This document shows positions 32,428-60,525 of a DNA stretch of 64,000 nt, piece after piece (positions within the stretch are counted from its first letter, which is position 1; each line of letters opens with the position of its first letter). Where the stretch lies: contig CM120644.1 in the NCBI GenBank assembly GCA_051362555.1, forward strand, positions 13,972,567 through 14,036,566, in the 5' to 3' direction. The notes under the pieces are model-generated. The model saw nothing but the letters and a program-made list of their open reading frames with translations. It was not told the origin of the DNA and made no database searches. The position numbers were made by a program, and so were the translations under genes. This DNA comes from Lingula anatina. Lineage: Eukaryota > Animalia > Brachiopoda.

Positions 32428-32470
<43 letters not shown>

Positions 32471-33790: not shown

Positions 33791-36316
33791 ATAATGTACA
33801 GTACATGCAATTTTAGTTTTAGCCATAATAATTGTGATTGGAAATGCAAAATAATTTTTTAACCAACACAAAAACCCAAAATAATTCCTTATCAGCAATA
33901 TATGATAGAAAGAGACACAATTTTTCTGCATGTGCATGTGAAGTGTGTGTGCTTGCACGTACATGTGAAGTGTGTGCACGTGCACGTGCCATAAAAGAAA
34001 TGTTCCAGTACGCTCATTTTCTTTCGAAAATACAGAAAAATGATGAGCATTAACATTTTCAGCTATTATCAATGTTATTTCTATTACGAAATAAATCATT
34101 TAACATTCATTATTATTGTAATAAGACTGAACGTGAATTCCAAGGAAGTTTATAAAGGATATACAGTGATACCTTTAGTAAATAGATTTATAAATATTGA
34201 TCAAAATTAAGTCATATTCTTGTTAAATTTGGCCTCGGCCTATGGCCGCGGCAAGTAGATGGTACAAAATAAATGCAGGGGATTTATTTTGCGGTATGAA
34301 ATCATTTTCAGAATGAACCAGTAGCAAGAAAACAGCTATAATTGTCATCATCATGTGCATTATATTGTTAAAAATTGGCCCTGCCTTTTAAAAGTGCGGT
34401 GGTTGTTTTTTTTCTTGACATTAGGTAATGTAACGCTTTGAATAAAATATCGAAGACAAAAGATTGCTAGTCACGAGTTGGTCAGACATATATCAAGCTG
34501 ACAAAAGCGATTAGCATGTTAAGGATAAGGAATATTCACATCTATATGCTGATTGAATTGTGATAAATATAGAGCACATTCTTGGTAGACAGTAATAAAG
34601 GACTATCTCCGAACTGCAATTAGCATTAACAAAATGTTTCCTGAACTGGAAAATATGATAAAAATATCAAACAAAATCTACGTAGTTTTAGTTTTATTCT
34701 TCCTGCAACCCGACTCATTAAATGTTCGCGGCTTAATGGCCACACTTAAATTAAGCAACATTACTGTGAGTATATTTCGTCCACTATTTTACTGGATAAT
34801 GGTGTCGATCCTTTTAGAATTAAAGGGATAGTGACTGTTCGTTTTGGTAAAAATATACTTACTTGGAGTAAATAACCATTTTACCACACTTACCGATGGT
34901 TAATATGAATCCATTCCGACATTCAAAGTTAGTCCATGCACATTTTTTTTCTAAAAAAGTTTTTTTAAAATAATAACCTCTTGAGAGAATATCACGGAGG
35001 AATAACCACCTGTGAAGGTGCATGTCGCCCGCATAACAGTTCCCGAAACAATATACCAGAAAAATATTTTATTTCATTTTTGCCACTTTTAATTAATTTA
35101 TTTATTATTGTGGGTAATGGTTTAATAATTTATTGATTCATGCTTATAACAGTAAGAATGATTTTCCTCAGTGTTGATCACCGACATTACAGGGATAACA
35201 ACTGTTAGTATGAGATTCACATTCACAATAAATACAACTCGTTAACAACTCATACAATTATAATAAATTCCATTTTACCCCCAAACACTTACAATTATTC
35301 TGGAATCTGTGCTTACGATTGCCAAGCGTACGCCCTTGGAATACAAGAATATATCTCGGAGCCCGTCTTAATATACTGTAAGATATCTGTAAAATTGTTT
35401 CGAGTAAATATACTGACAAACACTGACTTGCTGATACAATGTTTCTACGATGAACTAAGAACGAAATGGAATTTATTAAAAACAATTTTGAAGGAGCTCA
35501 AGATGTGCATTATATTGATGGAAATTGATCGTACTTTTTTAAAAGTGAGATGACTGTTTTTTCATTTATTTAGTTATTCATTACAATTCTAATTGGAATT
35601 CCCTTTAAGGTGGTATCGCTGTCTTTTTTTAATCAATGACACTGGAATTCATTGAGATTTGGACGATGGTTCCTCTTTACATTAGGTAATGTAACGCTTT
35701 GATTAAAATACCGAAGACAAAAGATTGCTAGTCACGAGTTAATCAGACATATATCAAGCGGTTTATTACTTACATTACCATGGTCAAGGAGCATAATGCA
35801 AATGATAAGGAGCCTTCATACACGTATCTAGATGCAGATTGATTCGTGATGAACATAGAGCTTAGTTTTGGAAATAATTAAGGGCAATTTCCAAACTGCA
35901 ATTGGCTTAATTATTAAAAGTCCAGGATCCCCTGTGCATTTACTGCAATTATGCAGACATTGTAGCCAAATAAAGGGAAACTTACTAGTCGGGAGAGCCG
36001 TGCCAGCGGTTTGCTACTTAAACGAGCACTTCTCTGCTCAGACGTACAGGAAACGTTTTACGACTCGAAGAGAAAAAGACGTAAAAATTACTCTAGCCGT
36101 TTACTCGCCAGGGGAGGTAAGCGCAGGTAAATACAAGAGTATTTTGACAAATCACCAGATTACACGTACTGTAGAAAGATATGAATTTACCAAAACAGTG
36201 ATGGCTTTAGTACCGTTTAGTTTTCGATTTGTTGACGGACTTTTTTTACACGCAACGTAAGTTATTATTTTTTTATTTCTTTTTATTATTGTCAGATCAG
36301 GATTCTACGGTGAGGC

Positions 36317-37757
36317 ATGGCTTTGACAACTATTCCACCCTTTGTAGGTAAGTTCAGCGGGGTAGCAAAAAGTTATTATTTCTACAATCCATCATTACTC
36401 GTACATAATTCCATATAGAGAGGTGTGAACTATTGACAACCATATTAATTGTGTCTTGAAATGGTGGGACTGTAATGAAAAGATTTGTTTCTACAACGAC
36501 CATTAAATGAATCAGTAGTTCGTTTTGTTGAGTGAGCTTTTTTCGTGGAGACATCTTATAGGGTCGACTTTGATCTGACTTTATCTCTTGTAGCAAGTTG
36601 CAGATGTTAATTATGAAAACCGAAAGTAATCTATTGTCACGTAAACAGAATATGTGCAGCACTTGGTTTTTGGTATCCTAAACCGTTGTATTTTTATCTA
36701 AATATAACTAAGGGACCATTCCCATAACCTTATCGTACTAGCTGGATCGATCTAACTATTCGGGGATTCTCGCTAGATTGCATTCAGTTTAAGCGGCTTA
36801 AATGTCTGGCACGTCCCCTCGAAACTTAGAGTACTTTGGTACAGTCGGGAAAACCTTTTTGGTCCACGATGTTTTGATGTTTTTCATATTGCTTTGTGAG
36901 GGGGTGGGGTTCTGCGCCTTGGCGAGAAACCCCCCTGAGATAGATCGATTCTGCTAGTACGATCAGGTTATGGAAACGCAGTCTAATAATGCAAATGCAA
37001 TTTTCAAAAAAGGGACATGTTGAACCGTGCAGAGAATTGGAACCAAGCCATGGGATTTATTGGACAGTATCGTTATCTTTCCAGGGTTTATAGGCGATAC
37101 CAGTACAAGCCTATTCAGTGCTTGTTCGAGTACGGAAACGGTTGCAAGTGGAAATGCGCCATTGTCTTGTGGAGATAGCACACGATGTATTACGAACCCA
37201 GTGTTTTCGTTCATAACCGGCTCCAGTCAGACCTGTCTCTGTCCGCTTACGTCCTATCCACAGGCGAATGGAACGTGCCAGAGCAGTGAGTGTTCCTTTT
37301 TGTCGTGATCTTGAGTCGTAAGATACATTTCTATCTAATTTTGTGTGAAATTCACTAATATGTACCAGTTTTCATGGGCGGATCCAGTATTATTCGAAGG
37401 GGGGTCCGCGGATAATAGCAAAGGGCTCAAGGCCTGCTGAAGGGTCCCAGGATATTTTGGTATTTTAGAGGGCGAACGGTGCCATTTGGTACGGTTTAAA
37501 ACTATGATTCAGCTAGTCAAAACTCTAATTTCAGGTGGGGAATATTGGGGTGATTTTTTTTTTCAGAAATCCGCCCCTGATTATTCTCATCACGAGAGTG
37601 ACTCAACATAAAGAAACTAAGAACTCTAAAATAGGTTGTAGTTCGTAGGTTTAGGCAAAGTAGACCTTGGTGTTTTAAGAGGGGTTCACCTGATATCTAT
37701 TTAGTACGTAAAGTCTAGGCCCCAACCGAACGTATGGTCTGCTACGTGTGGTCTACG

Positions 37758-37811
<54 letters not shown>

Positions 37812-38343
37812 GGAAAACGTGGGAGTTCGTGCGCGAGAAGCGTGCGACTTTTTGAGGACGCAAACAGCACGTAGAAACTTTTCACCAATTACTTGATTCC
37901 TTCTCTGCGATCTAGCTACGTCCTAGCGGTGATCGGGAGATCTATTTTACGGTCAAAAAGTATAAACATGTATGAAAAAACTCCGCGTCCAACAAATGTT
38001 CGCCTTTCTGTGAAATGTTAACACTGCTGCTTCTTTTCTATATTCCACATTTTTTTCCTCTGATGCTTTTATTGCATCTCGGTCTACTTATTTGTCGATA
38101 ATTTTATAGATTATGAAAAACATGGCATTGTGATGGCGCACAATTTTCTCTGCACATTTGCAAAACTTTGCGGAGTTTTACAGGTTTCATATCTTTGTAG
38201 TTTCCGGTTCGACCTGTCAGACTGAGTTAGACTGCAATAAGAAGACATTTGACTGCGTTGGAATAAACGGGATGGGCTTGGACACTGCCTTATTGGACTT
38301 CCTGACGGTATGGCAGCAGAGTTACAAACACAATGTACACAAT

Positions 38344-38379
<36 letters not shown>

Positions 38380-40958
38380 TCACACGTGGACAGACATAAT
38401 CGAACAGCGCTTAGCTATTTGCAATTAAAACACAAACACGTTTTATTTTGCCTTGTAAGGTGCGCGAGCAGAGTATTAAGTGCTTCTTAGGAGACCACAA
38501 ACATCACTTTTTTACATAAATGTAGAGGTAGATATTGATCTCTGGATTATAATATTAACGCACTGGATTATAATAATAAGTCACTTTAGTCCGCACAAAA
38601 TTGATAAGTTGGTCGGATTTTGAGTCTTTATCATTTACAATCCCTTAGCACTGTTGTGAAAATATCTAATACTTAGTTTCTACGCCTTTGCATATGCATA
38701 GTTGGGTTATCAGTCTTTAATATTTTTCATTTAGTCTGTAAACGTATTTTGAACCTAGGATCTAAGTTTTAACAAAGACTAAACGGTTCTAATAAGGGCA
38801 AATTGACACTTTTGTGAAACATAGGGCGAAAACTTTTTGTAAATAGGATTGGTAAACAATGTTACGGGGATAGCTGCTTGATATATGGGTTGTTCGCTTT
38901 TTAAGGAGTGTTAAGTGGGGGTGGGGAAATGGGGGGAGGATGGGGTTAGTGAAATCCACATGGTTAGAAAAAATGAAGCATTTAGATGAAATTAAATTTT
39001 TTTTCGTAGGTCAGTTTTGAATTTCTCAATTGTCAATGACCGATATGCTTTCTATTAAAACGCTCTTTTCAAATCTGTGGCTGATCGAGCTCCCTAAGCA
39101 ACTTGGCAGGAAATTCAGTAGCCGTAGAGAAGATCAGTAGCCTTACAGCAGAGGAATAAATAAAATATAGACTCGCAACATACCATCTTACCGTTCAGCA
39201 ATTTATTATCAACACATACTCCATCTCCTTTGCCTACCTTTTATCCATTATTAAAACGTTCTAATACACAATCTACTTTGCATTTTTCACCGTCAACACA
39301 GGTTTCAAATTCTCTATTCTACTTTCAGCCTATCGTTTTGTTTCTGTGTCAGCTGACGATGGAATACAACTTCCAAGTCCCGATTTGGGCGTGTACGGAA
39401 AGCCAGTGCAATCTCGTGGGGACTGGAACGCCGTCGATAATTCCTGTGGCCGTGGCGGTGCCTCAGAGACGAAAACGGGAAGGTACGAGTCACGGTACTC
39501 GAGTACACTAAGACTGGGCTCCCATAGCTAGATCGATCCATCTGGATCGGTCTAAATCTCTGGGGAGTGTCACTAAATTGCTATTACTTTAACCAACTTA
39601 AATGTCCTTCATGCGTACCGAATCAGCTAGGGGGTAAAGATAGTTACCCCCTAACAGCTTTCTCAATCTAGTGAGACTCCTTAGGGAGAAATATCGATCC
39701 AAATATCTGTGGGGATGGTCCCTAAGGGTCCATTCCCATATCCTAACGTTCTAACTACATGTGGATCGAGCTGTCTCTGAGGATGTCTGACACGCCTACT
39801 GAAGCTTCTAGGGGGGTAATTTATCATCGCACAGCTAAGCCGCTTAAGCTGAGAGCAATTTAGCGAGAAACCCCACAGAGATAGATCGATCCTGTTAGAT
39901 CGATCTAGGTATGGGTACCCAGTCTGATGGTGCGGGTGCGTTCACAATGAAACTATCATACTAAGTAGTCCCAACTCACTCTGCCGGAACTCTCGCTGAA
40001 TGCAATCCGATTAACAGATAAACACGCCACCTTTTGTTTTCAACGTACTCGTATAATCACCAGGTTTTCCGTATTCTCTCAACACCAGGAAGGGGTGTGT
40101 TCATCTATTAATCTGATTGCATTCAACGAGAGTTAGCGCGGAGTTAATACGAACCACCTCGCACGATTGTTTCATTATAAACGAACCCAAGACTACTTAT
40201 CTTTAATAATGTCTTTAAATGGGCCATAACATACACAGAATGAAATTACCTGTTCCGATTCTACGAATTGGTGTTACAATTGGTGTTGGTAATTTACGTA
40301 TTTGTGCTACCAGTATTTAACCTAGTATTAAATATTACAGATAAATTCACTAAAATTTTAATGGCGTTGTTATATTATCAATGACATGATCGATAAACAA
40401 ACTTAAGTTCACAAGTGAATTTTTTTTTTTCACAATCGAACAAAACATTCGCTTTGAGAGCACATGCAGTAGTGGGTCAAATACGTCATACTGCAGAAAG
40501 TTTTGTTGGAGATAATGGGAAAGTGTGTGTATATGAGAGAGAGAGAGAGAGAGAGAGAGTGTGTGTGTTGGGGGGGGGGGGGTGACAAACTATTCTGTAT
40601 ATCCTGCATCCACCGGTAAAGCGTGTTCTTGCTGTCATAGCCACGCAGTCAGTGTGTTGTATCTTATCTTGCAGTCAACGAACCACCTGAAGCAGTTGTG
40701 GAAGACCTCGGAGCCCGAATTATGGCATCTCTATCTAGGAAAACGAGAAGCGAAACCGAAAGTGCCGTTGGCTCGGAGTTCTCGTCCGTTGATGAGACCA
40801 AATCGAGGCAAAAGCGTGCACCGGCAACTGTGGCATGCTCACTCAATCTCTCTTTATGGTCTAATGTGTTATCCTTTTTCTTGGGAAGCCAGACAAGTCC
40901 GTTCCAGTTTAACTGTGGGCCTCTGGTTCAGGCAGGATGGCAGCCAGGATGGGCTTAA
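36317..40958 (+). CDS. Cys-rich precursor protein with multiple furin-type sites, paralog B (about 258 aa; 5' end uncertain)
   Basis: Exons 36317-36347, 37085-37285, 38201-38307, 39329-39482, 40675-40958; same phases as paralog A, open frame, in-frame 6-nt indel in exon 2. RRKR, RKTR, RQKR; ends APATVACSLNLSLWSNVLSFFLGSQTSPFQFNCGPLVQAGWQPGWA*. Confidence 0.7.
36712..36983. mobile_element. MITE (PIF/Harbinger-Tourist-like, TAA TSD), GATCGATC family
   Basis: Imperfect inverted ends (gggaccattcccataaccttatcgtactag...ctagtacgatcaggttatggaaacgcagtc); TAA on both sides; absent at the homologous site in unit A (aacataactaacattg, about 28955-28970). Confidence 0.8.
39512..39924. mobile_element. Two abutting GATCGATC-family MITEs in inverted arrangement
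   Basis: gactgggctcccatagctagatcgatc...gggatggtccc, then TAA, then gggtccattcccata...gatcgatctaggtatgggtacccagtc; absent at the equivalent position in unit A (about 31775). Confidence 0.75.
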
Positions 40959-41508
40959 CAAGCATGATATTGTAATAAAATACGGGTAAATCAAGCCTAT
41001 TGATCGGCCCAGCTTATTTGATATAATATGTTTGTCTTGCTGGCAGGAAAGTTGATATTTTATGTCATGCTTGCAATCAAGCAGGATAACGATAGCAGGT
41101 TCCTTTTAATTTAGAAGAAAAGGTTTTGCACATATTCCGGTGGAAGTATATCATTTTAAATAAGAAATATTTTATTGTCAAATTATTGATTGTAATGATC
41201 TATGTATTTATTAAAAAATACTTCGTGTAAATAAGTCATGGCATATGGGTCGGATCATAAGTGTTGGTTTATTATAACACGATCATATTGTGGCAAGAAT
41301 AAGGGGGTTCCAGGAACCCCAGTTCGTTTCTTATTACTTTATACAGGTGATATTCGCCCCCTCCCCCTCCAAACTCAACCCTTTACTTTAGGCTGACCCT
41401 ACCTGTACTCTAATCATATGGGACTCCGAACTCCGTCTCAAATGAATTACAATTTTTGTCATTCCGGGCTCCACAAAAACAGTGCAACAACAATGTCCGT
41501 TGTATTAG

Positions 41509-44574: not shown

Positions 44575-45891
44575 CTATGTGCTTGGGGTCTCTAGGAGGA
44601 AATCCCGGCGTTCTACCAGCCACACCCCGCCTTCCTCCCCCATCGCACTGTCAAGGTTGTTACGGCTGAGCAGAGCGTTCTCGAAGCTTTCCAGAGGATT
44701 GAGCGAGCCCTGGAAAATAGAAAGGCAGTAAACGTTACTTAACATTTTGAGCATATTGTACATGTACGATTATTTCATTAAATTGCAAACAGTGAAAAAA
44801 GAAATTAAAATTGCCTATGATTCTGAACTGTCATTTTCTTTCAGCCGGGCCGTCTGGATAAGATAAGTTCATCACAAATCTTTCAGATTCTACTTATCTT
44901 TACATCTTTCTAAACAGTGTGCTATTTTATAAGGAGTGTTTTTGTTTTAAGAACAGAAAGGGCCGAAATGGGGCATTTCGAATAAGGCCGATTCAAGATC
45001 ACTGGAAATACAACATGGGGCTGTTTTAGGGGGCATTCAGAATGTGCTTGGTCGACCTAACTCTACGGGGACTCTCGCTGAATGCAATCAGAATAACAGA
45101 CCACCTTCCTGGCGCTGAGAAGAATACATCTAAGATGGTGAGTATATGAATATGTCGGAAACAACAGGAGTGTCAGTCTGTTAATCTGATTGCATTCAGC
45201 GAGAGTATAGGTGGGGTTAGTGCGAATTAGCTAGGTCAACATAACACATTGTGAACGGCCCTTGAGTCAGCAATGTACGTACTCGAACTGGGTCCGATCC
45301 TCGGCATTTCTCGTAATCTAGCGTTACCCCTTCCTGTAGAAGCGGGGAATAATCGGCCTGCTTTCTTGTCGCAAATAACAACAGAACATCTCTCCCACAC
45401 TGGGGTTCTTCTTGGTCGGGATCCGGGGCGACAAAATTGCGCAGAGCGCCTTCCGGTATGTACAGTCTGAAGATTTCTTCGTCCGTTTTTCCCGGGCCTA
45501 TTTCGATTGTTCTTCCCTGTTTTGTTAAAAAGAAGAGAAAATTAATCAGATAGTCCTTGCTTTTAAATTTTTTAAAAATTCCTTCAAAGACCACAGCGAA
45601 ATTCATTTATGTTTTTATCCAACAGCTTTAAGTACACTCAAAGTGTTCTGTATAAAAATTATAGTCCAAGGGCACTGCCGGAACACCATTCTCCGGCATT
45701 TTCTTTTTGTCGCTGAAGAAAGGTAGCGTGTGCCCCTCTCAGGAAAGACTCAAAAATATATACAAACATCATTAAAGTATTTCATATTATTCTCAAACTG
45801 AAGTCTCTTCTGTTTACGACAAAAAAGCATATACATGTAACTTTAACAACATATTTTGGATATTCTGTAAAAAAATCGGGTATCTTCTGTC

Positions 45892-45927
<36 letters not shown>

Positions 45928-46275
45928 ATGGATCGCGGTGAACTTGCCTCTCTGTTAGGCAGGAATGGGTCACTGATTGAACCGTCCACACCAAAGAGTA
46001 AAACACACACGTGGATAGGGAAATCTTCGCGGTTTTCAACCTGGAAAACAATGGCGTCTCCCGACCCGGGTGTGACCTCTTTCACATTCCCCTTTGCATC
46101 GTAAGCTACCTTGTGGGCCTTCAGTCTAGGAGGTTCGGCACATACGCCTTTAATGTAAAATTCACAATACATTAAAATCAAGGTAATACAAATAAAAATG
46201 AATCAAAAATAATAACAGTGCGCAATCTTGCATAAGATCAGGTCCCAGTTTCACAAACACACACACACACACACT

Positions 46276-46308
<33 letters not shown>

Positions 46309-49300
46309 AAGTCTGTTCCATGGCTTAGTTAACTAGGGTCAACATTAGAGTGCTGTAACATTGTTCCTGATAGGGTAAGATGTGCACATGTAACCATGTA
46401 ACGTTGGTAATTAAGTTCTTAACCGGGGAACCCCTGACTTAAGTGTTGTTTTTTTTGTTGTTTGTTTGTTTTTTGTGAAACCGGGGGCAAACTGCGCATT
46501 TCCTTGTTATACCCATATCATATTCATTATTGACTATAGAAGGCAGAGAACAAAATAAGTTTAATCTGGATGATAACTGACAACAATACTAAAATCTTGT
46601 GATGAAAATACAGTAATAAAAATGTATTATCTTGGCATAGTTACAAATTGTAAAGCTAAAAGGATTTTTTTAATCACGCAAGAAACGATATAAAACTGTG
46701 ACTATACAATAGGAGCAATAAAAAACAAAACTGGTCCAGGACCAATAACAAAAAACTGAGATGTAAACCCCTTAAGCCCCCTTTACACTGGACGGCGTCC
46801 TTTCTGCGTCCCGCAGTACGACTCAGTTTGAGAGTAAAAGAAATTAATACTTAACGTGCCGACAACTGGCCGGTCATTGAGCTTTTACTCTGCAACCAAG
46901 GCGATGCTTGTCCCTACTTTCTACGACCACAGTGATGCCAGTTTCGTGGTCTCACAAAGGACGCAGAAAGGACGGCGTCCAGTGTAAAGGGAATTTCAAT
47001 AAAAGTCGAGGACAATCGAAGGATCCAGTTTTACCTTGATAAAGCTCAGGCTCTTCAGTCAAAGCTCGCTGAATCTTAGCCGTCTTGTCAGCGGCCCGGT
47101 ACGGGGTCACACTGGAGATTCTCTTGCAGTGGAAACGCACGTTCAGCATCATACCGCCGTTGCTGTGGTGCTGCTTCAGCGCCATCTCGTACCGGCACAC
47201 CTTAGCCAGGTTCACGGCAAGGACCGTTCCTGACGTGGTCTCGTCAGCGCTGACGGGAGGAATTAATGACTTGCCAGAACGCCGGGTGAACCAGTGGGGT
47301 GAGCTGAATGTTTATTATCAAATGTAAACATAAGTACAAATTCTTAAAAAAAAAAAAAAAAAAAATGTACAAGCACAATGGAGACTGGAGGAATTACTCC
47401 AAACTTGGGCATATTATGTCCATGCTCCAAATAACAAAACTTTACAAAATTATTTATAAAATTCTAAAACCTCGATTATGTCAATTAAACTGCAAATGTC
47501 TTGCACATTTGAGGAGAAAATCAGAGAGAGAGAGAGAGAGAGAGAGAGGTGGACTTACCCCTTATAGTCCTCTTTGGTTATAACAATGAGGTCTGCAAAC
47601 TTGTTCGTTTTTGTCTCTTTCTTGTCTTCATATGGTCGCATTTTAAACAGTTTCTGCGCCTCTAGATGCGTCTTTATATCCTTCGATTCGTCGTCTCCTG
47701 CTCTGATGGTCACGTGATACCGCGGGTGGCTCCCCTTGTGGAGAACACACAAGCAGGACCTCTGTGAAAAAATACCGCATTTCCATTTGATTTGTATTGA
47801 TCATTAAATGCATGTTAATTCTGAACATTATGATGATAAGTTCGATAAAAATAGCATTGTGGGGATAAATCTTATACCCAAAGACGTCGAACACGCATTT
47901 GCGACCCAACCCTTCTTATGAAGTAAACCAAAACGAAAAATAAGACACAGTTCAAGATACATTTCAACCGAAGCCATGGCCCATTCATAGTGAAAAAGAT
48001 TTTCAAATATGAAAAAAAGTATGAACTTTAATTTCATGCTTTATGTTCTGATGAGGGCGTTTCATACACTGGAGCCCAAAAGGTTTGCGCACCATTCCAT
48101 ATTTGTAAATTTCGCATAAATCAGAACTACTTCGTATATTTTAGTTTTTGCTTTAAAAATAACAATCAAAAAGTGTATCGACTGCTTAGGACAACAGCGT
48201 AGCTAGATATGGTTTACCTCCAAGCCTTATCTCCACTGTAATAGTACATCTACCGGTAAGACCTACCCAAGCATTCAAGTATATCCCAAACAAAGTCTAC
48301 AAGGCAGCAATGTATAGATATAATACTATTACTATATGATTAGTTAATCTATAAATATACAGATCAAATCACTTCAGTCCTCACCTCAATGGGTTTATGC
48401 TCAGAGCGCTCTATAACGTATCCCCGAGTTGTGTCCAAGTCTATATCGTAATCACTGATATCAACACGTCCGCACCAGAGCGGGCTCTCTTTCCCAAGTT
48501 TTGTGGCCACGTCCAGGTTTGTAGTTGGTGCAAATATATCGTACTGTCCACTGTGTAGGAGCTGTAACTGACCAGCGCCTATGGTCACTCTGTCGTCGTT
48601 GGCGGACATCAATTCGTAGCATTGGGTAGGTGACTGGTCAACTGGCGGGAAGAGAGAACGATATTATAAATTATCTTTTCAAAAATAAAGTAGTATTTTT
48701 TTCTTCAATCAACTGCTAATATTAAAATTGTTAACCTCCAATATTTCTATGGCTGGGTACCCATACCTAGATCGATCTAACAGGTTCGATCCATCTCCAA
48801 GGGGTTTCTCGCTAAATTGCTTGCAGCTTCAGCAGCTTAGATAACTGAGACGCCTACTGAAGCTGCTAAACGATAATCAATTACCCCCTTGCAGCTTCAG
48901 TAGGCGTGACAGACATCTAAACCGCTTAAGTTGATTGTAATTTAGCGAGAATCCCCTTGGAGATAGATCGATCTACAGTTAGTACGATAGGGTCTGGGAA
49001 TGGTCCCTATGTTTGTCTAGAACGTCTTCAGCAGGGAATGAGGCTACCCAGGTGAATAGCCTCCATCCAGAATATACACCCCATTTACTGCTTTAATAAA
49101 AGGCGGGTAAAATAGAGTGATTTGTTGGTACAGAATGAAAATGTCTCTTACCGTGCGTTTTCCCAAAGAGCGTCATGTTCCCAGCGCCCTCTAGCTGTGG
49201 CGTTTGATTGGCTCGGTTTGTTCGCTCCAGCTCGCGTAAGACGAGTCTGAATATTATTCATAAATATATCAAAAGGGACTTATTAAGACGAGATATCTTA

Positions 49301-49904
49301 AACCAGTAATATATGAGAAATTCATAACAGTTACATGAGTAACAAAGATTTTCTTCGTCTGACATGTTTAAGAAAATGTCCATACACAAAACCCTATACC
49401 TGAACCGGTAGATACAAAAAAGAACGATAATTAACACGGCACTCCATTTCAACAAAACCATAACATCATAATCTTAATAAAATGTCACAGAAATGAGCAG
49501 ATACTTTGTAAAAGTTAATGCAAAGACGAGTGCCATTATTTGGCAGGCAAATTTTTAGGTACCTGTACAAAGTCTTCATCGTCAGCTCCTCCGGTCGTTT
49601 CACCTCCTTAATCACGCGTCGCATACAACTCGTTAAGAGACCGTGATTCAGCCCGTCCGCTCTATCTTTCACTTCATACGCCACCTCCAGGTGAGACGCT
49701 GCCGCCAAGTGGACAAAGTGACTGGCCTTTGAGGGGGACCAGCCCTTCGGACTAATGCGCTTGACCGGGGCGTCGTTTCCCCGATATTTAGGGGTGGTAT
49801 CCTCCGTGGCGTTGGGGTTGATGTTTGCCTTGGCCGCTGCCATGAGGTCGTCAAATGTTATCTGTGTTGTGAGAGGAAAGAAAGTTATAAAATTAAACGC
49901 AAAT

Positions 49905-49948
<44 letters not shown>

Positions 49949-50489
49949 TTGAAACGCCACCTTCAATTGTTGATCTGTCTCACTGGCATTCGTCCCTATA
50001 TACAATTCAATATAACTTCTCAGTGAAAATAATTTTAAACCATAAAAATACGAATAAATAAGATGGTGCAAGGTAGAGAGAAACCCAGAATTTCGCTGCT
50101 AGTCACGTAGTAACGGTAACGTACTGCTGAATTTTTAAATTCATTTTAATGAATTTATATTAAAATATAAAGATATAAAAAGTCATCATTTTCAAATTTC
50201 TAATGTTAAAATGAAAAAAGGCAATTATCTAGATATCTAGATATACAGATATTCATTTAACAGATGCTACATGTTAAAATCTCACCTGTCTTTCACCAAC
50301 AGGCTGAAATGGACTATCGCCGTGATCGAACCCTCGGTAAATCCTCCCCGAGTGGCAGCAGTCGAACACCATGAAAACGTACACATTCCGCTCCGACAAC
50401 GCGTTCAGGAACGGTCTCAGGTCGTCCCCAGTGATGACGAATTTCTCCGGGGAGTTTTGAAGACCCTAAAAATATAAAGAAAAGTTACA

Positions 50490-50520
<31 letters not shown>

Positions 50521-53500
50521 AGGCTATATATATACTTTGGTATACAGAGACAAAGATGTTGGATTTCTTTAAAAATTATCTGCGCCTTTCCAATTTTCAT
50601 TTCGTAATAAACAAATAATACACCTACATCCACTGTGGGAACATCCGCCGTAACCAAGCCCTCATCCCACTCGCCTTCTACTTGCATCCCGTGGCCGGCG
50701 TAGAAGAGGAAAAACACGCTACGTGGCTGAATATTCTGCACTATATCGTGCATCGACTGAAGGATATTTTCTTTGGTGGCTGCATGCTTCTCTAATATCT
50801 GAAGATATAGCGTTGGTTTTATAGATTAACACCGTCGAGAAATTTGGAGGTCATGAGAATTTCAATGCCAACAATTTTTACTGTTTAAATTGAACTTAGC
50901 TTAAAATTGAAAAACTGAAAGTTTTTCAGACGGCATACATGTATACTGCTTCTCATCCTTTTCTGCCAATTTTAAAGCTAAAAGCATCTTGTTATACGTC
51001 ACGCTTCTTTTTTAACCACACACAAAAACAAAATATTAAAAGGCTATTCATAAACCAATAGACAAGTCAGAATACGTACATGAATCTTTCTAAAGTTGAA
51101 CGGGGGCTGCTGTATGATCTCTCTGATAGTATTGATGTCATTCTCTACTCCAGGCAGCTGCTTGTTCACCGGAAGGAAGGGATAAGTCGGCCCTATCAGC
51201 AGCGCAGTGCCTGAAAAAAAAAAATTAGCCCAAGCCACTATTGCGTCACATACCACATGACCTAGATTTCTCGTTTCAAGGATATAAAAAGACGATAATG
51301 ATATATCCATAATATGAGATGATTTATTTCCCAAAAGTACAGGTGCCTTATACAGATGCAAACATGGATAATTAAGGACAATGGCTCATGTATTTTTCAA
51401 TCAAATCTTTTCTATTTAATTTCTATTTAATCTATTTAATTTTTAAATTAAAATTATATTTTGAGGTTAGCACTTTAATGTTCCCTAGACAAATGGCGCT
51501 GTAAGTCTCTGACCCGATTTCATAGAAGAAAAAAAACTTAAGTCAGTTTCCCTGGTTAAGAACTTTTAAAATTACCAACGTTAGTAACTTACATTGTCAC
51601 ATCTTTCCCTATCAGGATCAGTGTAACAGCACTCTCAAGGAAATCCTAGTCAAGTAAACCAGGAAAATAACGTTTTTTTTTTCTTTTTTTTTTTTTGTGC
51701 GACTGGGGCTTCGCCGTGCGAAGAAAAATAGTCACATTTTAAAGGTTTGATTAATAAAAATCTACTTACGCCGTACGTCCGGTGGCCGTCGTTCACTTTG
51801 GTTTATGGCCTGCATTAGGAGTTGCTAAAAAATAACACGTAAAAAGAAAGACGATTAAAAAGGAAATAAAGACAAAAAATAAAGATAATTTAATTTTTAG
51901 GGGATAATCAACATTCTTAGGCCCGCTCGATACATAACGATACCTGCAGCTGAGCCATCATTCAGGTGCATAGGACTCAAAGCATGAAACTAAAATTATG
52001 CCATCGCGGCAAAACCTGATGTACATTGGTAGACTTTCGCTGAGAAATCGCCCTCAAATATTCTGCCATACCCAGGGGGGGGGGGGGGTAGGGGGAGGCA
52101 CAGCCTGTCTCACATCTGGGAGGGTGTAATTGTGAACAGTTCAATACTGATATAGGTCTTCGAGTACAATAACGTCTTGTACACATATCAGATTTGGGAC
52201 ATCAAGTGTGTAGTAGGGAGGAAGCAGTGAGAAAGGAATTTGGGGGGGGGGGGGGGGGGAGTTTACATCGGCCTTGCCATTGCGAAGAAAACGAAACGTG
52301 AACCTGTCACCGACCCCGTAGACTTTATAGTCTACTTGAGAGTATGTTTCCTTCATTTGGGAAAGGAACTGGCGGAAGTGTATGTGTGTGTGGGTTCGTG
52401 CGTGTGACTTGCATGTTTGTGCGTTTGTGTGTATGTGTGTGTTTTTATTTAATTTTAGGTAGGTGGCTTAAGAACAACACTTGAAGTCCACCAATATCCT
52501 CAACAAAAATCTAAGTTAACAACTGCCGATAGTTTATACAATATACAGCACTTCCATCATTTCTACGATCATGATTATGTCACCTTCATCAGCAATTAAA
52601 ATGAGTCTATGTCAACAGCGTATATAATTTCTACAATAAACTGTGACGTCCACCGCTCGCACCAAACTCTGAACTGAGTCCCTCACATACATTCACTGAG
52701 AAGCTCAGAGTTAAATATAGATTTATATATAGATTCATTTTAAAGGGCTCATTCCCATTGAAGTCATCGGTCTACGTACATCGATGGCTTGGTAGGCAAA
52801 CTCGCTGAAATCAAAGACCAAAATAACCATTAAATGAGGCCATTACGAACCTGATCTTACCACGAAACGCCCGCACATAGAGTTGTATCTAAGCAGTGCT
52901 TCTCCCTCCACTTGATACAAGGAAGTGAGGTTAAGTTCCGTCAAAAAATATGCAGGGAATTTTATCAGCAATCCGTGTGTCAGAAGGGGATTCCCCTATT
53001 GATTGCTATAAATATCGGGCGTAGATCATCTGACTTCTTTATTTTTGTCTTATATAGGGGTATTCTATCGCTATTATCTTGTCTTTGAAATATATAACAA
53101 CCAGAAAGACAGGCTCTGTAAGTTTCTTTTTCATATGATCCATTAAACATATGTCATTTTCATGTTTAACAAAACGATCAAAGCTAGGGCATTCTAACAA
53201 CCAGAGACATTACGACACTGACTCAAGAAATTTCCCCACCTACTTAAGGACTTACGAAAAACTTCCGCATCCAAAAATAACATTATAGGGATTTCCACCG
53301 TTTCATATCGATGTATTTATAACCTGTGGGAATTCCCAGCCATGAGAAATATCAGGAATACAATATACGTGTAAAAAAAACCTGGAATGATTCACTTATT
53401 CGCCCACAGAGTGAGGGCGTTTCTTATTACTAATATTAAATTGTGCGACATCCTCAGTTAAATAAATAGCATAAAGAGATTGTTAATTAAGGAAATAAAA

Positions 53501-55659
53501 AGGCAATACAAATCGAAATATCTTGCTCTTTCTGGGTACATGCAAAATCCTCTTCTTTTATGTGATGAAAATTTTGCCAATTTAAATCATAACCAAAATA
53601 CTCACGAAGTGGTCAACTTCGTCGATCTCTCCCGTAGCAATATCAATTTCCGTAATAGGTGTTTGGGTCCCAGAAATATCCCGCACGGCCTGAATAGAAA
53701 AAAAAGGTACGCAAAATTACAGCCTAGTACGCACTGATACGCATAAATACAAATAAATACGCATTAAACAGGAATAACACACATTTAAATTCATAACGTA
53801 GAGAAACCGGTACGCATTGATACGCCTTAAGACGCGCATTTCAAATTAATTTTGTGTCACTACCATACATGTAGGGGCGACTACATGTAGGCCTATATTA
53901 CTACCAATTTGTCTATATAGCCAACTACAGTCATAATCACTGCACCTCATGAAAATGCCACACTGATACTGCAAATATGATATTTTGTCTTGAAGCCAGC
54001 ATATACTTCCATTTAAACTTTTGGTGAAATTTGCCGCCGTTAATACATACAACAAACGCAAGCAGGAATTTAAATTACAATGAGACGGCTGTAGTTTATT
54101 TGAGAAAATTTTACTCCTTTATCATCAAATAAATACAAAATTATCAGATTTTGTTATCAACTTATCAAATATGCAACAAGAGAAAATTACACAGTAACTG
54201 TTAAATCTATATTTGATCTTTTTTAAAAACATCAACCCATTCTAGTCATCTCAGCATGCGTGCCACGAAACCCGTGACGTCATGTGACGTAAGCATGATG
54301 TCATATTTCGTCATCCACCACCGTAAGTGATTAAAAGGTACGTATGAAGTCAAATATTGTTATACTGTTAGACCACATACAGTACAAGTAAAACACCCCA
54401 CAACCAACTTCCATAGCCATGAATGAAATCATGAAATCAGTGCAAGTAGTTCACTATTTCCCTTCTTTCTTACTTGTTTTGAGAGTGTGGGAGTATAGTT
54501 GCAAAATAGCACAGCAAATAATAAATAAATAAATAATTTTTTTAAAGATCAAAGCCAGAAAGTGAAAAAGAACAGAAGCAAAGGGAATATATCATAATAA
54601 CACCCAAACCCACAAGGTCTACTAAATCAATAGAGTGTGACTGACAAAGCACATGATCCGTCACCACTCACCAGTTACGTTCGCAACACAGTGTAACACC
54701 CATTCCTACTAAAAATGCTCAACCCCTAGTTTGAATAAAAGTATAGCTACAACATCTTATACTTTCTTCAAAAATGGCAAAGGTCTACTGAGACTTTTTT
54801 ATCATAAAATAATATGTATAAAAATCGAAATGGAATGTCCCAAAAAATCAACTTACACCCGGCCCCGGTATACAAATGCAGTGGTCAGGTAAGTCCTAAC
54901 AAATATGGAGAAGGTAACATAAACCCACAAGAAAAGGGTATAAAAACATACTGCTATATTTTAATATACTCCAAATACACATGTAGATAATGTTACTGAT
55001 CTTAAAAAGGGATGGAGGGGGGGGGGGGATATCAGACTCACCTTCTACACAGGTCTGATTATGCATTCTCAGTGTAGTCACGTGACAAAGAGATTACTTC
55101 AGTATTGGCCACTACATACAATTACTGACCAATTTCGCCTCCCTTTGATTAAAAATTTCACAACCCTTTCAAAAATGTAGGTGAAACAAGCCAGATAATC
55201 CGCGAATATAGAAAAAGGATACCGTTGCAAAGTAGCAGTATAACATATATAGTAGGTTTCGCTTACTCTCTGATAGCACAGGGGCTTCTAGTATCGGTAT
55301 ATTGGTAGTAAACAAAATTGAAGAAGATACAGTAATTTTGCAACAGACCACTAGCGAACCCCGTCGTAAGAGAGTGCTAGTAGGTTTAGCTGTATGTATA
55401 TAAGAGCACTACCGTACCCGGGATGTGTTATGTGATTCACTTTCAAATGCATAATATTTAGAAGGTGAGTTAAGAACTGGGATTCTGCTGTTCAGCAAAA
55501 TTATATATGGTAATACATGTTCTATACGTTAGTCTACATGCCATGTTTGAGATATATCGTTAGTGGAATGAGGACTAGTTAATGTATTTACATGCAAACT
55601 CAAACCAAAGCATCTTAAAGGGGTGCGGCTTCAGTCGAGCAATAATGAATGCTGGTTAA

Positions 55660-55694
<35 letters not shown>

Positions 55695-56394
55695 ATATTA
55701 GCGGAAGATAATGGATTTACCTTGAAACTCAAGGATCGCTACAAAGATAAAATAAAAAACAGTGCTTTGACATAAAAACAATATAAACAGCGCACGTTGA
55801 CAACACTGGCACTATAAGGACTTAATGAGCGTTTTCTTCGAGTTTGACATCTGTAAGTTTTTCATAGCACAAAACGCATTTGCCCCAGTGGAAATGGCCA
55901 GTTGATCAAAATACAACGCAGCCGTCTCAATTTTATATCCACAACTGTATATAAAATAAAGCGCGAGAAAAATAATTTTCCGTCTATACAAACGTATGTC
56001 GACAGGTAAAACTGATACCAACAAAACTAAAAAAAATTCTCTACATAAAAAAATGCTGCGAGATGATACATTTTATTGGCGATCGGCTAAAAAGGCCTTA
56101 TGTACGTAACTTTTACACATTCCGTATTACGAAAAACTTTATTATTCGGAAATAACTATATGAAGGAACAATTTGAACGGAACATATTTATGCAACTACA
56201 GTATGAGTAAAGTGTGGGTTGCTACTGCTGCAGGACCGTCACAAAAACATTTTCTAAAAATCTTACTTGTCTAAGTTAAACTAAACACAAGCAACTTTGA
56301 ATGCAATTAAAATATAGTAATAATGCAAACGAGACTAAGGCGACGGTGGAGGTGTATTTCTTAATCCTATCTCTAAAATCCGACAGGCCGGTGC

Positions 56395-56434
<40 letters not shown>

Positions 56435-57211
56435 GCACGCGCACACACACATATTCACACACAAATATCTAGTGGCGCTCTTTCAGTCGCTTTCTAATCA
56501 ACATTACAAAACAAGCACGTATATATTAGACCTAAAATCAAAAAGAGACAACACCTTTGTTTCGTAACTCATTTTCTCTCGCTTTCCGAAGCAATTCATT
56601 CACTTCAGAATTCCACATCATTTACTGAACCAGTAAGTAAAATGGACCACAGCTTTGGGACACCCTTACCTGCGACAACCTGACGACAGTGTCAAGGAAA
56701 GCGTCCGCGTTCTTGGGCAGCAGGAAAACGAGGCTGTGGTCGTTCAGTTTCTCCTCCATCTCTTTATCGAACACCACGTGGACTACAGTGTCGCCTTGCA
56801 CCGGGATGCACTTGGCACCTTTGTAGAAAAATTAAGATTATTTTAAATAAAAATAATCAGATAGAACAAAATCACAAGAGGCCCGGGAAAATTTTGCAAT
56901 ACCTTTAGTGAACCTAGTGTTAAAAAACAAACACACACAATAAATAAATAAATAGATAGATATACTTACTTTCCGTATGGCAGTTAATTCTAACTCTGGT
57001 CAATTCCTCCACGCTGACGGTGGACAGCATGTTGCTGCTGTCAATCAAATGGACGTCGCGTCCCGTCAAAGATAAATACCGATATAGAAGAGTTTCGTGG
57101 AGATTCACTGTCTTTGAGTAATAGAGGTCGATTGGTCTCACTGGAATAAAGTAAAGGGCACATTGGAATGATAGGAAATTAGTCGGCAGTGAAAAAAAAC
57201 ACGTAAGGATA

Positions 57212-57254
<43 letters not shown>

Positions 57255-58988
57255 GAGAGAGAGAGACTCAAGTTGTAGAAAAACAACATCACGCCTACAT
57301 AAAGTGGTAACCCTATTGTCCCTCATTTCTACTTCTAGCTTCAATATCTTTGTGTGATATGCTGTTGTTGGTTGATTTTAAAAAGTCGAAATAACTTAAT
57401 CCTAAATCTCATACATACACTCGAGAACAAAAAAAAAAAAAAAAAAAAAAAAAAAAGATATGTTATTACCCACCATGAAGCCATCCAGAAACTTTCTGCG
57501 GATAGACAACTTTCTCGGAATCTTTCAGCCGGATTCGTATTTCCGTTATGAACACACCGTGCACGTTCATCAATTTATTATTATCCACGATCTGGCGGAA
57601 AGTAGATAAAGAGCTCATGGGGATAGAATACCTGAAACATTGGACTTAATTTCTAAATTTCGGAATGCTCAAAACCTAGTTTGCCCTACAGAACCAGTAA
57701 TTCATTTCAAATAATTTTTACGCGTCAGAGTTTACGCTGCAAAATGAGAAATACCATAGAAACATACAGAACAGAAATCAATATCAGAAATTTCATTTTA
57801 AATTCTATCGCAAGTCGAAGATTGATGTATAAAAAGACATTACAGGAAACAATGTGCGTACGAACACGCTCATTTACAAAAATAGCAACATACACATACA
57901 AACGTTTTGTTTTATGACAAAATAAATTAAAATATATAGAAATAATAAAAAAAATAAATAAATATAATTGAAAGGAAAGAGTAAGGGCCCATTCCGTATT
58001 AATCTGTTAATCTGATTGCTTTCAGCGAGAGTCTCCGCGGAGCAGGATCCATCTACGTGGAACGATGGTTTCATTGGGAACAAGCCTTTAACGATCAATT
58101 TGTAATTAGTGAGTACTAGCTGTTAAAATTTAAAAGTTTATGCTTCCTGCACCATACTGAGGGGGATATGTATCTTGAATTAGATATGGTTTTAGATAAT
58201 AAAAACTGATCGAAAAGTGGGCACAAAAATCGATCTTTTACCTGAGTAATAAGGAACCATACTCTATCTGCTCCCAGAGGAAGTCATCCTCGTGAAGACA
58301 GAACATGAACCGCAGCGCCCTCTCCAGGTGTTCACGTCTGTCCAGGAAGTTCATCAGGTTACCGCGCATGCGGAATGTGGTCATGAAACGAGGCTGGTCT
58401 GTAATTAAAAAAATAATAGTAAATAAATAAACAAATTTAAAAAAACTAAAAAAAACTCATTAACAGTACTTAACTATTTCTTTGAATATGAATATCATTA
58501 TTACCTTTTGAATAGCCCTTGTATGTTATCTTAATCATATTAAATGTCGGTATCTTATTTAATAACATACATGTATACCAGTAAATATATACAAGTAATT
58601 ATAAAATCATACATGATTACAAAGAACATATTATAAACAAATCATTTATATCAAAATATGTGCAAAATTGTTTAGGCCACGTATGTAAAGACGAAACTCA
58701 CGAGAACTGTTTTAAAAATAAAGTATAATCAAATGTAGGTCTTACACTATAGTCTCTTTTCAATAACAGTTGGGTCAAGATCCGTTCAACCTGACACATT
58801 CAATTGTGGTATAAATAGAATGAAAAACTAGTATCACGACAACTGGCGATCACAAAAACATCCATTATCGCACAGAAAGGACAGAACTTCTCCAGTTCCC
58901 AGCATAAAAGACGTCATTGACATCATACAGTATATTGTACGCCACAGATATCAAAGCCATGAATAACAGTCGTAAGTTCGAATTCTTT

Positions 58989-59037
<49 letters not shown>

Positions 59038-60525
59038 CATAACCGCACCTCTCCCCGATTTTTAACCACGCCAGTCGTGAGCTCAGATTGTTAAAAGAAG
59101 GGGGGGGGGACTCATTTAACCTATATGTGTGTACGGCTGAATAAGTCATAAATAATCACGTTGAAGCCCAATGTCAAGTACATATTTTTGCCGTTATCCG
59201 TCCAACCCCGTTACTGTTTTTTTTTCCGGATACTCAAATCCCCCACCCACACAACTAAACTTGTTTTCTACTCGATGGGTCAAGCATCTGCCTTAATGTT
59301 TCGAAATAGGGGCAAGACACGTATAAAATTAATGCATGAATTCAGAGAACTATGCAAATAATTCTAAAACATCTGGAGGTCACTTCACCTTAATATCGAC
59401 CCGAACGGTCGGTTTTTCTTTCATACATGTCTGGCATGCATCTCTGAGTGCGGTTAACCTGTTATGAGAGCAAGGGCAAAAGGGGTAAGTTTGAAACCAT
59501 CAAGGTGAAATGTGAAGGTTCTAAATACATGATTCGTGATGTGTGTAATAGTACGTCAAAGAAAACGCAAAACAAGTTTTGTGGGTATCAGTTTTATCAT
59601 TTTGCAAAAGAGAACACGGTATGGCTGTGCCACTTTCTATGACAGATCAAAACGGTTCCATTCTCTTGCCCCTCGCCCCCCCCCACTCTTTCTTACATGT
59701 TTCTTGTCCTATTGCGGATCGGAAAACGGACGAAATGCTGGTATCTCTCTCTCTCTCTCTCTCTCTCTTGACACACACTCTCTCTCTCACTTACACACAC
59801 ACACACCCAGTCTATCTCTACCCTTTCGCTATTCTTAAAAAATATTTAATTTTTTTATAAATACATTTATCACTGACCACAAACTTACCAGACACGTTCC
59901 GATGTTTTCGACGAAACTCCGTCAAGCGAGCGGCAGATGCTTTTTCTTCCACGGACGACAACAGTATCTCCATATTTTCCAGAAGCTTTTTGTGTCCATA
60001 GGAAGATTTAACATTCTCCACCAGGGACCGGCCATCTTCTACTTGTGCCGATACCTATATGAGTTGGATTATATTTACACAATTTATCTAATCAATAAGT
60101 TCTTGTTTCTTTTTTACTGGTAAAGTGCAACGACAGAAAGCCAAATATTATTATTTTCACTTTATAAGCCGCCTCATAAAGGTGAAAAATGAATGTATAT
60201 ACATAGACAAAACATGCCAAATACCCAAGTAAAAATAAATACCCACATTGAATCAAAGTACAAAGGCATGATCACTTTTATTGCGGCTAAAAAATCAACA
60301 CATCAGACAACACAATCCAAATATTCATTCTTTGTTTACTTATTCTTCGATGTTTTTCGTTTGAAGGATTGTCTTATAACCATAACACAAAACTTTTAAT
60401 TTCTGGTTTTAGGCGAGGCGTACCTCTCGAGGGAAGTGGCAGAAAGCTGTCATCCAGTGGACCTCCTCGAGGGTCAGGTCTTTGGTGACATCCTCCAATA
60501 GATTTAACTCCTCTTCCTCGGACAT
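44575..60525 (-). CDS. DED-like / TRADD-N-like / possible TIR-like adaptor fused to a metacaspase-like (peptidase C14) protease with long C-terminal extension, 1043 aa, 18 coding exons
   Basis: Exons in transcript order: 60525-60424, 60054-59889, 58398-58242, 57631-57474, 57140-56970, 56818-56670, 51824-51770, 51210-51080, 50798-50628, 50465-50286, 49861-49563, 49246-49152, 48641-48385, 47761-47559, 47303-47035, 46147-45948, 45516-45283, 44709-44575. All junctions are phase-compatible with no stop over 3132 nt; 16 GT-AG introns and 1 GC-AG intron. Protease motifs RTALLIG, LPGVEND, ATKENI, FFLFYAGHG, DEGLVTAD, MVFDCCHSG, HLAAA...AYE, HGLLT, QTPQLEG. The 56670-to-51824 join is inferred from phase only. 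Confidence 0.85.
46241..46488. mobile_element. MITE with CCC(A/G)GTTTCACAAA ends; inverted related copy at about 51510-51710
   Basis: cccagtttcacaaa...tttgtgaaaccggg; the internal gagtgctgtaaca...cctgataggg..agatgtg...aacgttggtaat...aagttcttaacc block is found reverse-complemented at 51555-51636. Confidence 0.65.
46779..46991. mobile_element. MITE with 33-bp terminal inverted repeats in a protease-gene intron
   Basis: ccctttacactggacggcgtcctttctgcgtcc ... ggacgcagaaaggacggcgtccagtgtaaaggg (1 mismatch). Confidence 0.8.
48751..49007. mobile_element. GATCGATC-family MITE, well preserved
   Basis: ggctgggtacccatacctagatcgatcta ... tagatcgatcta...gggtctgggaatggtccc; internally palindromic (cgcctactgaagctgc...gcagcttcagtaggcg); TAT on both flanks. 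Confidence 0.8.
49152..51210 (-). other. Metacaspase-like catalytic domain (exons 8-12) with intact His-Cys dyad
   Basis: His codon of YAGHG at 50693-50691; catalytic Cys codon of FDCCHSG at 50357-50355; p10-like region FVHLAAASHLEVAYE...HGLLTSCM...QTPQLEG. Confidence 0.9.
52855..53337 (-). promoter_or_regulatory. Cluster of NF-kB/Rel-type sites with an adjacent splice donor; candidate intronic alternative promoter
   Basis: GGGGATTCCCC 52986-52996, GAAATTTCCCC 53227-53237, GGGATTTCC 53288-53296, GGGAATTCCC 53328-53337, GGGAATTTT near 52955, ETS-like GGAAGTG at 52921; minus-strand donor GTG|GTAAGA at 52861/52860. Confidence 0.55.
59889..60525 (-). other. Death-effector-domain-like N-terminal domain (exons 1-2, about 85 aa)
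   Basis: LLEDVTKDLTLEEVHWMTAFCHFPREVSAQVEDGRSLVENV...NMEILLSSVEEKASAARLTEF follows the DED hydrophobic pattern (LLxxIxxxLxxxELxxLKFLC...IxSGxDLF...LxxLLxxIxRxDLxxxLxxY); the RxDL motif is degenerate. Confidence 0.7.

Follow-up and report, generated by a model that had tools for sequence, protein, structure and literature searches.

A bacterial-type metacaspase module in a spliced, transcribed gene of the brachiopod Lingula anatina and its sea-anemone orthologues

How does a brachiopod gene come to encode a protease with the build of a bacterial protein? The question is raised by a stretch of 64,000 nt of Lingula anatina DNA (assembly GCA_051362555.1, contig CM120644.1, positions 13,972,567 to 14,036,566 of the forward strand), the whole of which is called the window here and supplies all coordinates. 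A first-pass annotation, made from the letters alone, had read part of it as a complete bacterial-style caspase-family protein that acquired introns, either by ancient horizontal transfer or as a patchily retained ancestral gene, and was later joined to a metazoan adaptor. Joining the exons gave a gene at 60525..44575 on the minus strand, with 19 exons in a single open frame of 1071 amino acids (aa). As judged by sequence comparison, its C-terminal 724 aa correspond to a whole bacterial-type metacaspase module, namely a protease, a beta-barrel, an alpha/beta domain and a DUF4384-like sandwich.

The gene is a real spliced and transcribed host gene. Its model has the length of RefSeq isoform X2 of L. 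anatina LOC106155116, from which it differs by 10 substitutions, and a search with exon 12 returned this single protein. GT-AG borders were found in 17 of the 18 introns; intron 17 is of the GC-AG type, with its donor at 45947 inside the DUF4384-like domain. The protease half comprises exons 9-19 (8-18 in the earlier numbering) and exactly ten introns, as had been proposed. Every motif quoted from the letters was located on the minus strand, and their order is the expected one (QTPQLEG 49206, VTIGAG 48588, NLAKVC 47212, GDAIVF 46061, LLLFAT 45384, GVWLVE 44628), and QTPQLEG, residues 622-628, is followed by 443 aa where about 440 had been estimated. The claim that the introns hold host miniature inverted-repeat transposable elements (MITEs) stands for introns 13, 16 and 18, where high-copy MITE-like inverted repeats with arms of 92, 33 and 50 nt have a summed contig depth of 9,000-75,000 versus about 70 elsewhere, and not for the other seven. 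The stretch occurs in DNA runs that 4 studies obtained from one organism, none of the runs being labelled RNA. In the stranded RNA run X15 the exon bins of both gene halves are covered solely on the expected strand (depth 3.6-4.5 versus 0 on the opposite strand at 45240-46179, and 0.9-1.5 versus 0 at 56520-57929), with intron-only bins at 0. Among the exonic read variants listed, 14 of 18 are synonymous. Contamination by bacteria or a chimeric assembly, to which the bacterial-type sequence might point, is exceedingly improbable for a transcribed gene with ten spliceosomal introns in this half, host repeats and host neighbours, as the first-pass annotation had also argued.

Residues 348-635 form a C14 protease (Pfam PF00656, 69.7 bits versus a cut-off of 21.4) with a His-Cys dyad, H427 in YAGHG and C485 in FDCCHSG. 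Metacaspases were the sole matches in a PDB sequence search, bar one chance match in the N-terminal part, and no caspase or MALT1 chain was matched there by phmmer at E≤10. An AlphaFold model built from 119 sequences had block means of the predicted local distance difference test (pLDDT) mostly above 80 over residues 351-1010, except in the linker 493-546; the model from the single sequence was poor (pLDDT 31.9), and its fold search gave no match at E≤0.001. The best folds for the former were the plant metacaspases AtMC4 (Z 25.5) and AtMC9 (Z 25.4), followed by MALT1 (21.5) and caspases (19 or less), in agreement with Foldseek. Residues 345-638 superpose on 224 residues of AtMC9 with a root-mean-square deviation of 2.3, which points to a p10-like region after the p20.

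In TbMCA2 the S1 pocket is described as being made acidic by D95 and D211 (PMC4357240). D372 and D483 match these residues by alignment; all 111 bacterial-type rows have Asp at both sites, as do all animal rows that span the sites. At the Ca2+ site (D173, D189, D190, D220) two of the aspartates are kept as D436 and D462, while G461 replaces D189 and R492 replaces D220. Because only two of the four aspartates remain, we call the protein metacaspase-like and not a canonical type I or type II member, and the acidic pocket together with the half-lost Ca2+ site predicts cleavage past Arg or Lys that is independent of Ca2+. Four other assignments were tried and rejected. The score for the NCBIfam family caspase_w_EACC1 was 44 bits versus a cut-off of 140. 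Animal caspases (C14A) carry QACxG, not FDCCHSG, and gave no sequence match. For a type 1 paracaspase such as MALT1 neither an Ig nor a death domain was matched in Pfam, and the fold likeness lies below that of metacaspases. The p10-like region speaks against an orthocaspase, a term used for prokaryotic proteins with a p20 only (PMC5756287).

The tail of about 430 aa reached 124.8 bits against a hidden Markov model (HMM) of 103 bacterial-type tails that had been aligned without animal rows; the best of 300 shuffled tails reached 3.2 bits (138 were reported, the rest fell below the listing level). HHalign of the tail with the bacterial-type tails gave 99.8% and E 4e-30 over 358 columns. By parts, residues 645-735 scored 15.8, residues 737-842 18.2 and residues 843-1071 80.9 bits against the bacterial HMM. 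Since the Lingula protein has no direct Pfam match to DUF4384 (PF14326) at E≤5, the last domain is labelled DUF4384-like; the Nematostella protein matched at E 0.039 and 10 of 22 scanned bacterial-type proteins at E≤0.1, often below the cut-off, and the top Atlas cluster for the tail is DUF4384 (0.93). The beta-barrel showed VIA Z values of 8-9.8 to a flagellar LPHT ring chain (8z5n) and to N-terminal barrels of rotary ATPases, a range typical of common folds, the fold matches of the tail being taken from the whole-protein model and not from domains folded alone. The bacterial architecture with a DUF4384-like end was thus named correctly in the first-pass annotation, and the likeness to some fungal proteins is borne out by a protein of Candolleomyces (P0034) with the same long architecture. 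P0034 consists of two tandem long-type modules, and inspection of the second showed neither the His nor the Cys motif.

Regarding relatives, phmmer against 1.84 billion representatives yielded 3654 matches at E≤0.001, the best 150 of which were inspected. The best four non-self matches are sea-anemone proteins from Nematostella (E 7e-114), Actinostola (two models) and Exaiptasia. Lingula and these three genera are the only animals identified among the best 150, a patchy distribution of the kind foreseen, with no broad set of animal or holozoan orthologues. Because the representatives conceal members at ≥50% identity and only the best 150 were inspected, absence from other animals is likely on this sequence evidence, not proven. 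Two word-index searches are uninformative on absence elsewhere: the first (7991 candidates scored) missed all anemone proteins and the second (7993 scored) recovered one of five known animal clusters. Complete anemone proteins are stand-alone and 689-842 aa long. From the 145 other matches 16 were looked up, among them two short fungal metacaspases and one named bacterium; the remaining ones are termed bacterial since they mix with 79 GTDB loci in the tree, six being identical to a GTDB protein. P0034 lies outside the best 150, which bacterial-type proteins fill. Three metagenome fragments (P0056, P0106, P0189) lack both module ends, which among the 145 non-animal matches is otherwise seen only in one short fungal protein. 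Two of them lie on contigs of 7.0 and 12.6 kb, the similarity of P0106 stops, in our reading, exactly at Lingula intron 14, and the frames of the fragments stay open across Lingula introns 10-13. They may be exons of microbial eukaryotes.

Four unrooted trees were built with one search each: a FastTree of 284 rows and, from sets drawn out of these, IQ-TREE maximum-likelihood trees of 57 rows by 270 columns (protease domain, including 3 added viral rows) and 39 rows by 638 columns (whole module), as well as a C20 mixture tree of 30 rows. Nine rows were dropped as further isoforms or pieces of animal genes already represented. All four trees place an animal clade with the topology (Lingula,(Nematostella,(Exaiptasia,Actinostola))) among bacterial rows, as a horizontal origin had been expected to do. 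The clade is supported at 99/96 for the whole module and 94/58 for the protease domain, and Lingula stands outside the anemones at 100/98 (39 rows) and 99 (C20). The three fragments are its sister at 100/99, and the group they form with it is set among bacterial rows; if the fragments are exons of microbial eukaryotes, as they may be, the gene could have come from bacteria by an indirect path, and a donor phylum cannot be singled out. In the 39-row tree the Candolleomyces protein joins one row from Cyanobacteria and one from Deltaproteobacteria at 99/98, with a long-branch warning. The two short fungal metacaspases fall elsewhere at 96/90 in the 57-row tree, in which such proteins are thinly sampled.

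The anemone protein models break at positions that correspond to Lingula introns. An Exaiptasia model ends in K-R-stop at intron 15, consistent with read-through of a phase-2 donor; intron 18 marks the end or the point of divergence of two Actinostola models; the alignment of one anemone model begins at intron 9 and another starts at the first full codon past intron 12. Four of six breaks thus coincide with Lingula introns, for which the chance is about 4e-5 with one codon of slack. Intron sites that are apparently common to the orthologues speak against a transfer confined to brachiopods and make a single gain of the introns probable, at a time when the Lingula and anemone copies had not yet separated. 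Of the two origins left open by the first-pass annotation, horizontal acquisition gains from the bacterial nesting and the patchiness, in a form not confined to brachiopods, and a retained gene descending with the fungi is rejected only weakly on the whole module and not on the protease domain.

In the N-terminal half, residues 1-84 formed six helices in the single-sequence model, with a pLDDT of about 50-75 in the model from 119 sequences, where residues 82-291 stayed below 50. Residues 195-301, an unassigned alternating beta/alpha domain at low confidence, may follow a TIR-like pattern. No Pfam, PDB, Atlas or fold search supported residues 1-347; Atlas gave no usable match for residues 1-302, the TRADD-N profile PF20694 did not match the N-terminus, and blastp of this part against 2 bacterial TRADD-N examples was not significant. 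A match to the NLRP12 PYD was rejected, being out of register and over the maltose-binding protein tag. By eye, residues 90-190 fit the TRADD-N pattern of strand, helix, 'GS' plus hydrophobic strand plus P, helix and strand given in the supplement of PMC8195603. The proposed metazoan adaptor is a candidate drawn from secondary structure and a by-eye motif fit, which profile and structure searches did not confirm. M333 precedes the first protease strand by 17 aa, a place comparable to that of the start Met in stand-alone Nematostella isoforms, which suggests that an adaptor gene was spliced onto an ancestral first exon, now exon 8. The two longest introns are 6 (2980 nt) and 7 (1781 nt); in longer database isoforms intron 6 yields two optional minus-strand microexons, at 54857-54895 (39 nt) and 55721-55738 (18 nt). 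For brachiopods, 33 proteins with a death fold, TRADD-N and swapped effectors are listed in PMC8195603; LOC106155116 is absent by accession from 12 of its 13 supplementary files and from the 77 Lingula places listed in supplementary file 4.

Taken as a whole, the account that we favour, with moderate confidence only, is as follows. A stem animal or its unicellular ancestor would have acquired the gene once from bacteria, before the cnidarian-bilaterian split; the introns would have been gained once, likewise before this split, as the four common sites indirectly indicate; and most animals would later have lost the gene. In the Lingula line an upstream gene with a death fold and a TRADD-N-like domain would have been spliced onto exon 8. 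The N-terminal adaptor could then recruit the enzyme into a death-fold complex upon a signal of infection or damage, where clustering would turn on the Ca2+-independent protease and substrates would be cut past Arg or Lys through the acidic pocket formed by D372 and D483. The outcome may be an effector of immunity or cell death, a MALT1-style initiator built from a different enzyme. The bacterial relatives are found in comparable protease-switch settings, with TPR-CHAT proteins, ECF sigma and anti-sigma factors or as gasdermin fusions.

Several points weigh against this account. It requires many losses, and no corals, molluscs, annelids, deuterostomes or named holozoans occur among the best 150 of 3654 matches. 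Lingula and Nematostella are as similar (36% identity) as Nematostella and Exaiptasia (34%). The position among bacteria is unstable, the nearest group having 93/87 in the 39-row tree and no resolution in the 57-row tree, and the sister fragments may be eukaryotic. When the fungal long homologue was forced onto the animal clade, the approximately unbiased (AU) test did not reject this for the protease domain (p=0.449) and rejected it weakly for the whole module (p=0.028). The anemone intron sites were read from breaks in protein models, not from anemone DNA, and the two further breaks lie 2-3 codons off introns 8 and 10. The N-terminal domains are without statistical support, their identity as an adaptor being plausible. 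No read across exons 7-8-9 is among the 15 of 107 splice joints listed, so the fusion rests on RefSeq and on the compatibility of the frames.

These points can be arranged differently. One marine animal line, or a protist, might have taken the bacterial gene and gained the introns, after which DNA moved between the anemone and brachiopod lines directly or via a protist or virus. This would explain the common introns without mass loss, and would suit two sessile marine lineages being the only animals among the best matches and a Lingula-Nematostella identity within the 34-46% found between anemone genera. We consider it unlikely, however: with Lingula outside all anemone rows only a stem anemone could have been the donor, identity to the query is just 23-29% for the 13 viral loci found, 3 of which form a separate long branch in the 57-row tree, and the G+C content at third codon positions is 0.60 in both gene halves, which gives no sign of a recent arrival. 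Quite unlikely, in our view, is vertical inheritance of an opisthokont or earlier long-type metacaspase that was kept in some fungi, protists and few animals, its bacterial origin being very old. The architecture of P0034, the AU result for the protease domain and the exon-like sister fragments without both ends would fit such a history; the AU result for the whole module, the grouping of P0034 with bacterial rows, its place outside the best 150 matches and the lack of any named unicellular holozoan among these argue against it.

Separate acquisitions by Lingula and anemones from related bacteria would account for the patchiness, and the sister frames that stay open across introns 10-13 could belong to an unsampled bacterial donor group. 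Yet the animals are monophyletic without the sisters (99/96, weaker at 94/58 on the protease domain) and four intron sites appear common, so that this seems very unlikely. A further objection concerns function alone, namely that the fusion exists only in the gene model or in a minor isoform, and that translation from M333 gives a separate protease, as in anemones. The stand-alone orthologues, the place of M333 at their start Met, the length of introns 6 and 7 and the want of a junction read among the joints listed speak for it. In contrast, the halves are joined in RefSeq isoforms X1 and X2 as well as in one further database record, all splice phases agree and RNA depth is similar across the halves, and we find this objection as improbable as vertical inheritance.

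The closest known proteins are bacterial long-type C14 proteins of 620-710 aa with a DUF4384-like end, found in Cyanobacteria, Acidobacteria, Chloroflexi, Gemmatimonadota and others. They have the same four-domain order and share with Lingula 24-33% identity, the dyad, both S1 aspartates and R492; the Lingula gene differs by its ten introns, the extra N-terminal 347 aa and the lack of operon partners, and the animal clade by G461 and D463 (mostly D/E in bacteria) and by a GCxND motif without the Cys. The anemone genes LOC116614781 (Nematostella), LOC110238608 (Exaiptasia) and the QZH41 models of Actinostola encode an orthologous module with 30-36% identity and apparently common introns, in contrast to Lingula as stand-alone proteins without the N-terminal adaptor; an older Exaiptasia LOC110238608 model bears the automatic name 'Metacaspase-7'. 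Eukaryotic C14B metacaspases (TbMCA2, Yca1, AtMC4, AtMC9), the best PDB matches, likewise have p20, p10-like region and acidic S1 pocket; unlike them, the Lingula protein carries a three-domain tail of 430 aa and two of four Ca2+ aspartates and branches apart from the two short fungal metacaspases sampled. If its N-terminus is a death fold, it would resemble initiator caspases and MALT1 as an adaptor-recruited clan CD protease; it differs from them in having no QACxG, an acidic instead of a basic pocket and no Ig domains. MALT1 is described as Arg-specific (PMC4357240).

A candidate likeness also exists to the DEDD2-clade TRADD-N expansions of Kaur et al. 2021 (PMC8195603), which combine a death fold, TRADD-N and a variable effector; caspase effectors are listed there for sponge, amphioxus and coral, and in no Lingula row among the rows listed. 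Bdelloid rotifers offer a precedent for foreign metacaspase-like genes in an animal, with horizontally acquired C14 genes described as a bdelloid-specific expansion, some being pathogen-induced (PMC11258130); no bdelloid protein was identified among our best 150 of 3654 matches, most of which carry no organism label. The protease family is known; no earlier description of it in animals was found in the full-text literature, mostly outside subscription journals, and neither the old intron-bearing animal branch nor its joining to a likely death-fold adaptor seems to have been reported.

In 79 bacterial loci the caspase gene is accompanied by ECF sigma factors in 14, by zf-HC2 anti-sigma genes in 10 (one probe) and 7 (a second probe, which may share loci with the first) and by TPR/CHAT-like genes in 22, the probe having included TPRs. 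Bacterial gasdermins are described as activated by caspase-like proteases (bioRxiv 10.1101/2021.06.07.447441). Gasdermin-protease fusions were seen in three of 145 matches, P0061 passing the NCBIfam gasdermin cut-off and two more starting alike, and a separate gasdermin neighbour in none of the 79 loci. Single-chain fusions of a gasdermin with a long-type caspase, 936-954 aa long, are represented by P0061, P0126, P0137 and P0203. In 11 of the 79 loci (L004, L006-L009, L012, L020, L026-L028, L039), mostly from Acidobacteria, there is a conserved unannotated gene of 120-240 aa, in many cases the immediate upstream neighbour of the caspase gene; the three members scanned had no Pfam match. A bolder extension of our account, which we hold only tentatively and think rather doubtful, is that the cnidarian-bilaterian ancestor possessed, in addition to caspases and paracaspases, a third C14 lineage derived from bacterial defence-signalling systems, and that Lingula may have made of it a Ca2+-independent Arg/Lys initiator with a death fold for immune death, possibly by gasdermin cutting.

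Table 1. Features of the Lingula gene, in window coordinates
Feature	Position	Strand	Remark
Exons 1-2 (60525-60424, 60054-59889), aa 1-89: candidate six-helix death fold (DED-like)	59889..60525	-	inferred
Exons 3-4 (58398-58242, 57631-57474), aa 90-194: TRADD-N-like candidate	57474..58398	-	inferred
Exons 5-6 (57140-56970, 56818-56670), aa 195-301: alternating beta/alpha domain	56670..57140	-	low-confidence secondary structure
Optional 18-nt microexon, RSLSFK	55721..55738	-	RefSeq isoform X1
Exon 7: acidic linker, aa 302-329	53606..53689	-	
Exon 8: aa 330-347	51770..51824	-	M333 (51815-51813)
Exon 9: protease strand 1	51080..51210	-	S1 Asp D372 (51139-51137)
Exon 10: YAGHG	50628..50798	-	catalytic His H427 (50693-50691)
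Exon 11: FDCCHSG	50286..50465	-	S1 Asp D483 (50363-50361), catalytic Cys C485 (50357-50355), R492
Exon 12: disordered linker and p10-like subdomain	49563..49861	-	FVHLAAA
Exon 13: end of protease domain	49152..49246	-	QTPQLEG
MITE-like palindromic repeat, intron 13	48753..49008	.	
Exon 14: small beta-barrel domain (aa 645-735)	48385..48641	-	homologous to the bacterial one
Exon 15: alpha/beta middle domain, first part	47559..47761	-	
Exon 16: middle domain and start of C-terminal sandwich	47035..47303	-	NLAKVCRYEMAL helix
MITE-like element, intron 16	46779..46991	.	33-nt terminal inverted repeats
Exon 17: DUF4384-like beta-sandwich	45948..46147	-	GDAIVFQVEN...; then GC-AG intron
Exon 18: DUF4384-like sandwich	45283..45516	-	LLLFATRKQADYSPLLQEG
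MITE-like element, intron 18	45052..45225	.	50-nt arms
Exon 19: terminal strand and stop	44575..44709	-	GVWLVERRDF

Elsewhere in the window, a tandem segmental duplication of about 7.7 kb spans 26300-41100 (26673-33016 versus 34413-41089, 76-90% identical) and holds a duplicated plus-strand gene whose exons are Cys-rich and whose C-terminal tail is basic. A spliced plus-strand gene at 12900-24100 has an exon ending ...RFPRFNSTVLYDPIISQG... and a hydrophobic C-terminus, without a Pfam match for the exons scanned; we take it to recall coral skeletal aspartic-acid-rich proteins. Cys-rich exons on the plus strand at 8245-9841 gave a weak match to the EB module (E 0.0085).

Metacaspases are said to be absent from animals, with bdelloid rotifers as a known exception. 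If our account is true, the intron-bearing bacterial-type metacaspase of a brachiopod and sea anemones would be an old exception, probably predating Bilateria. Nematostella and Exaiptasia are tractable models, so the function of the gene is directly testable. The Lingula fusion, if true, would represent a bacterial conflict protease plugged into an animal network of death-fold adaptors.

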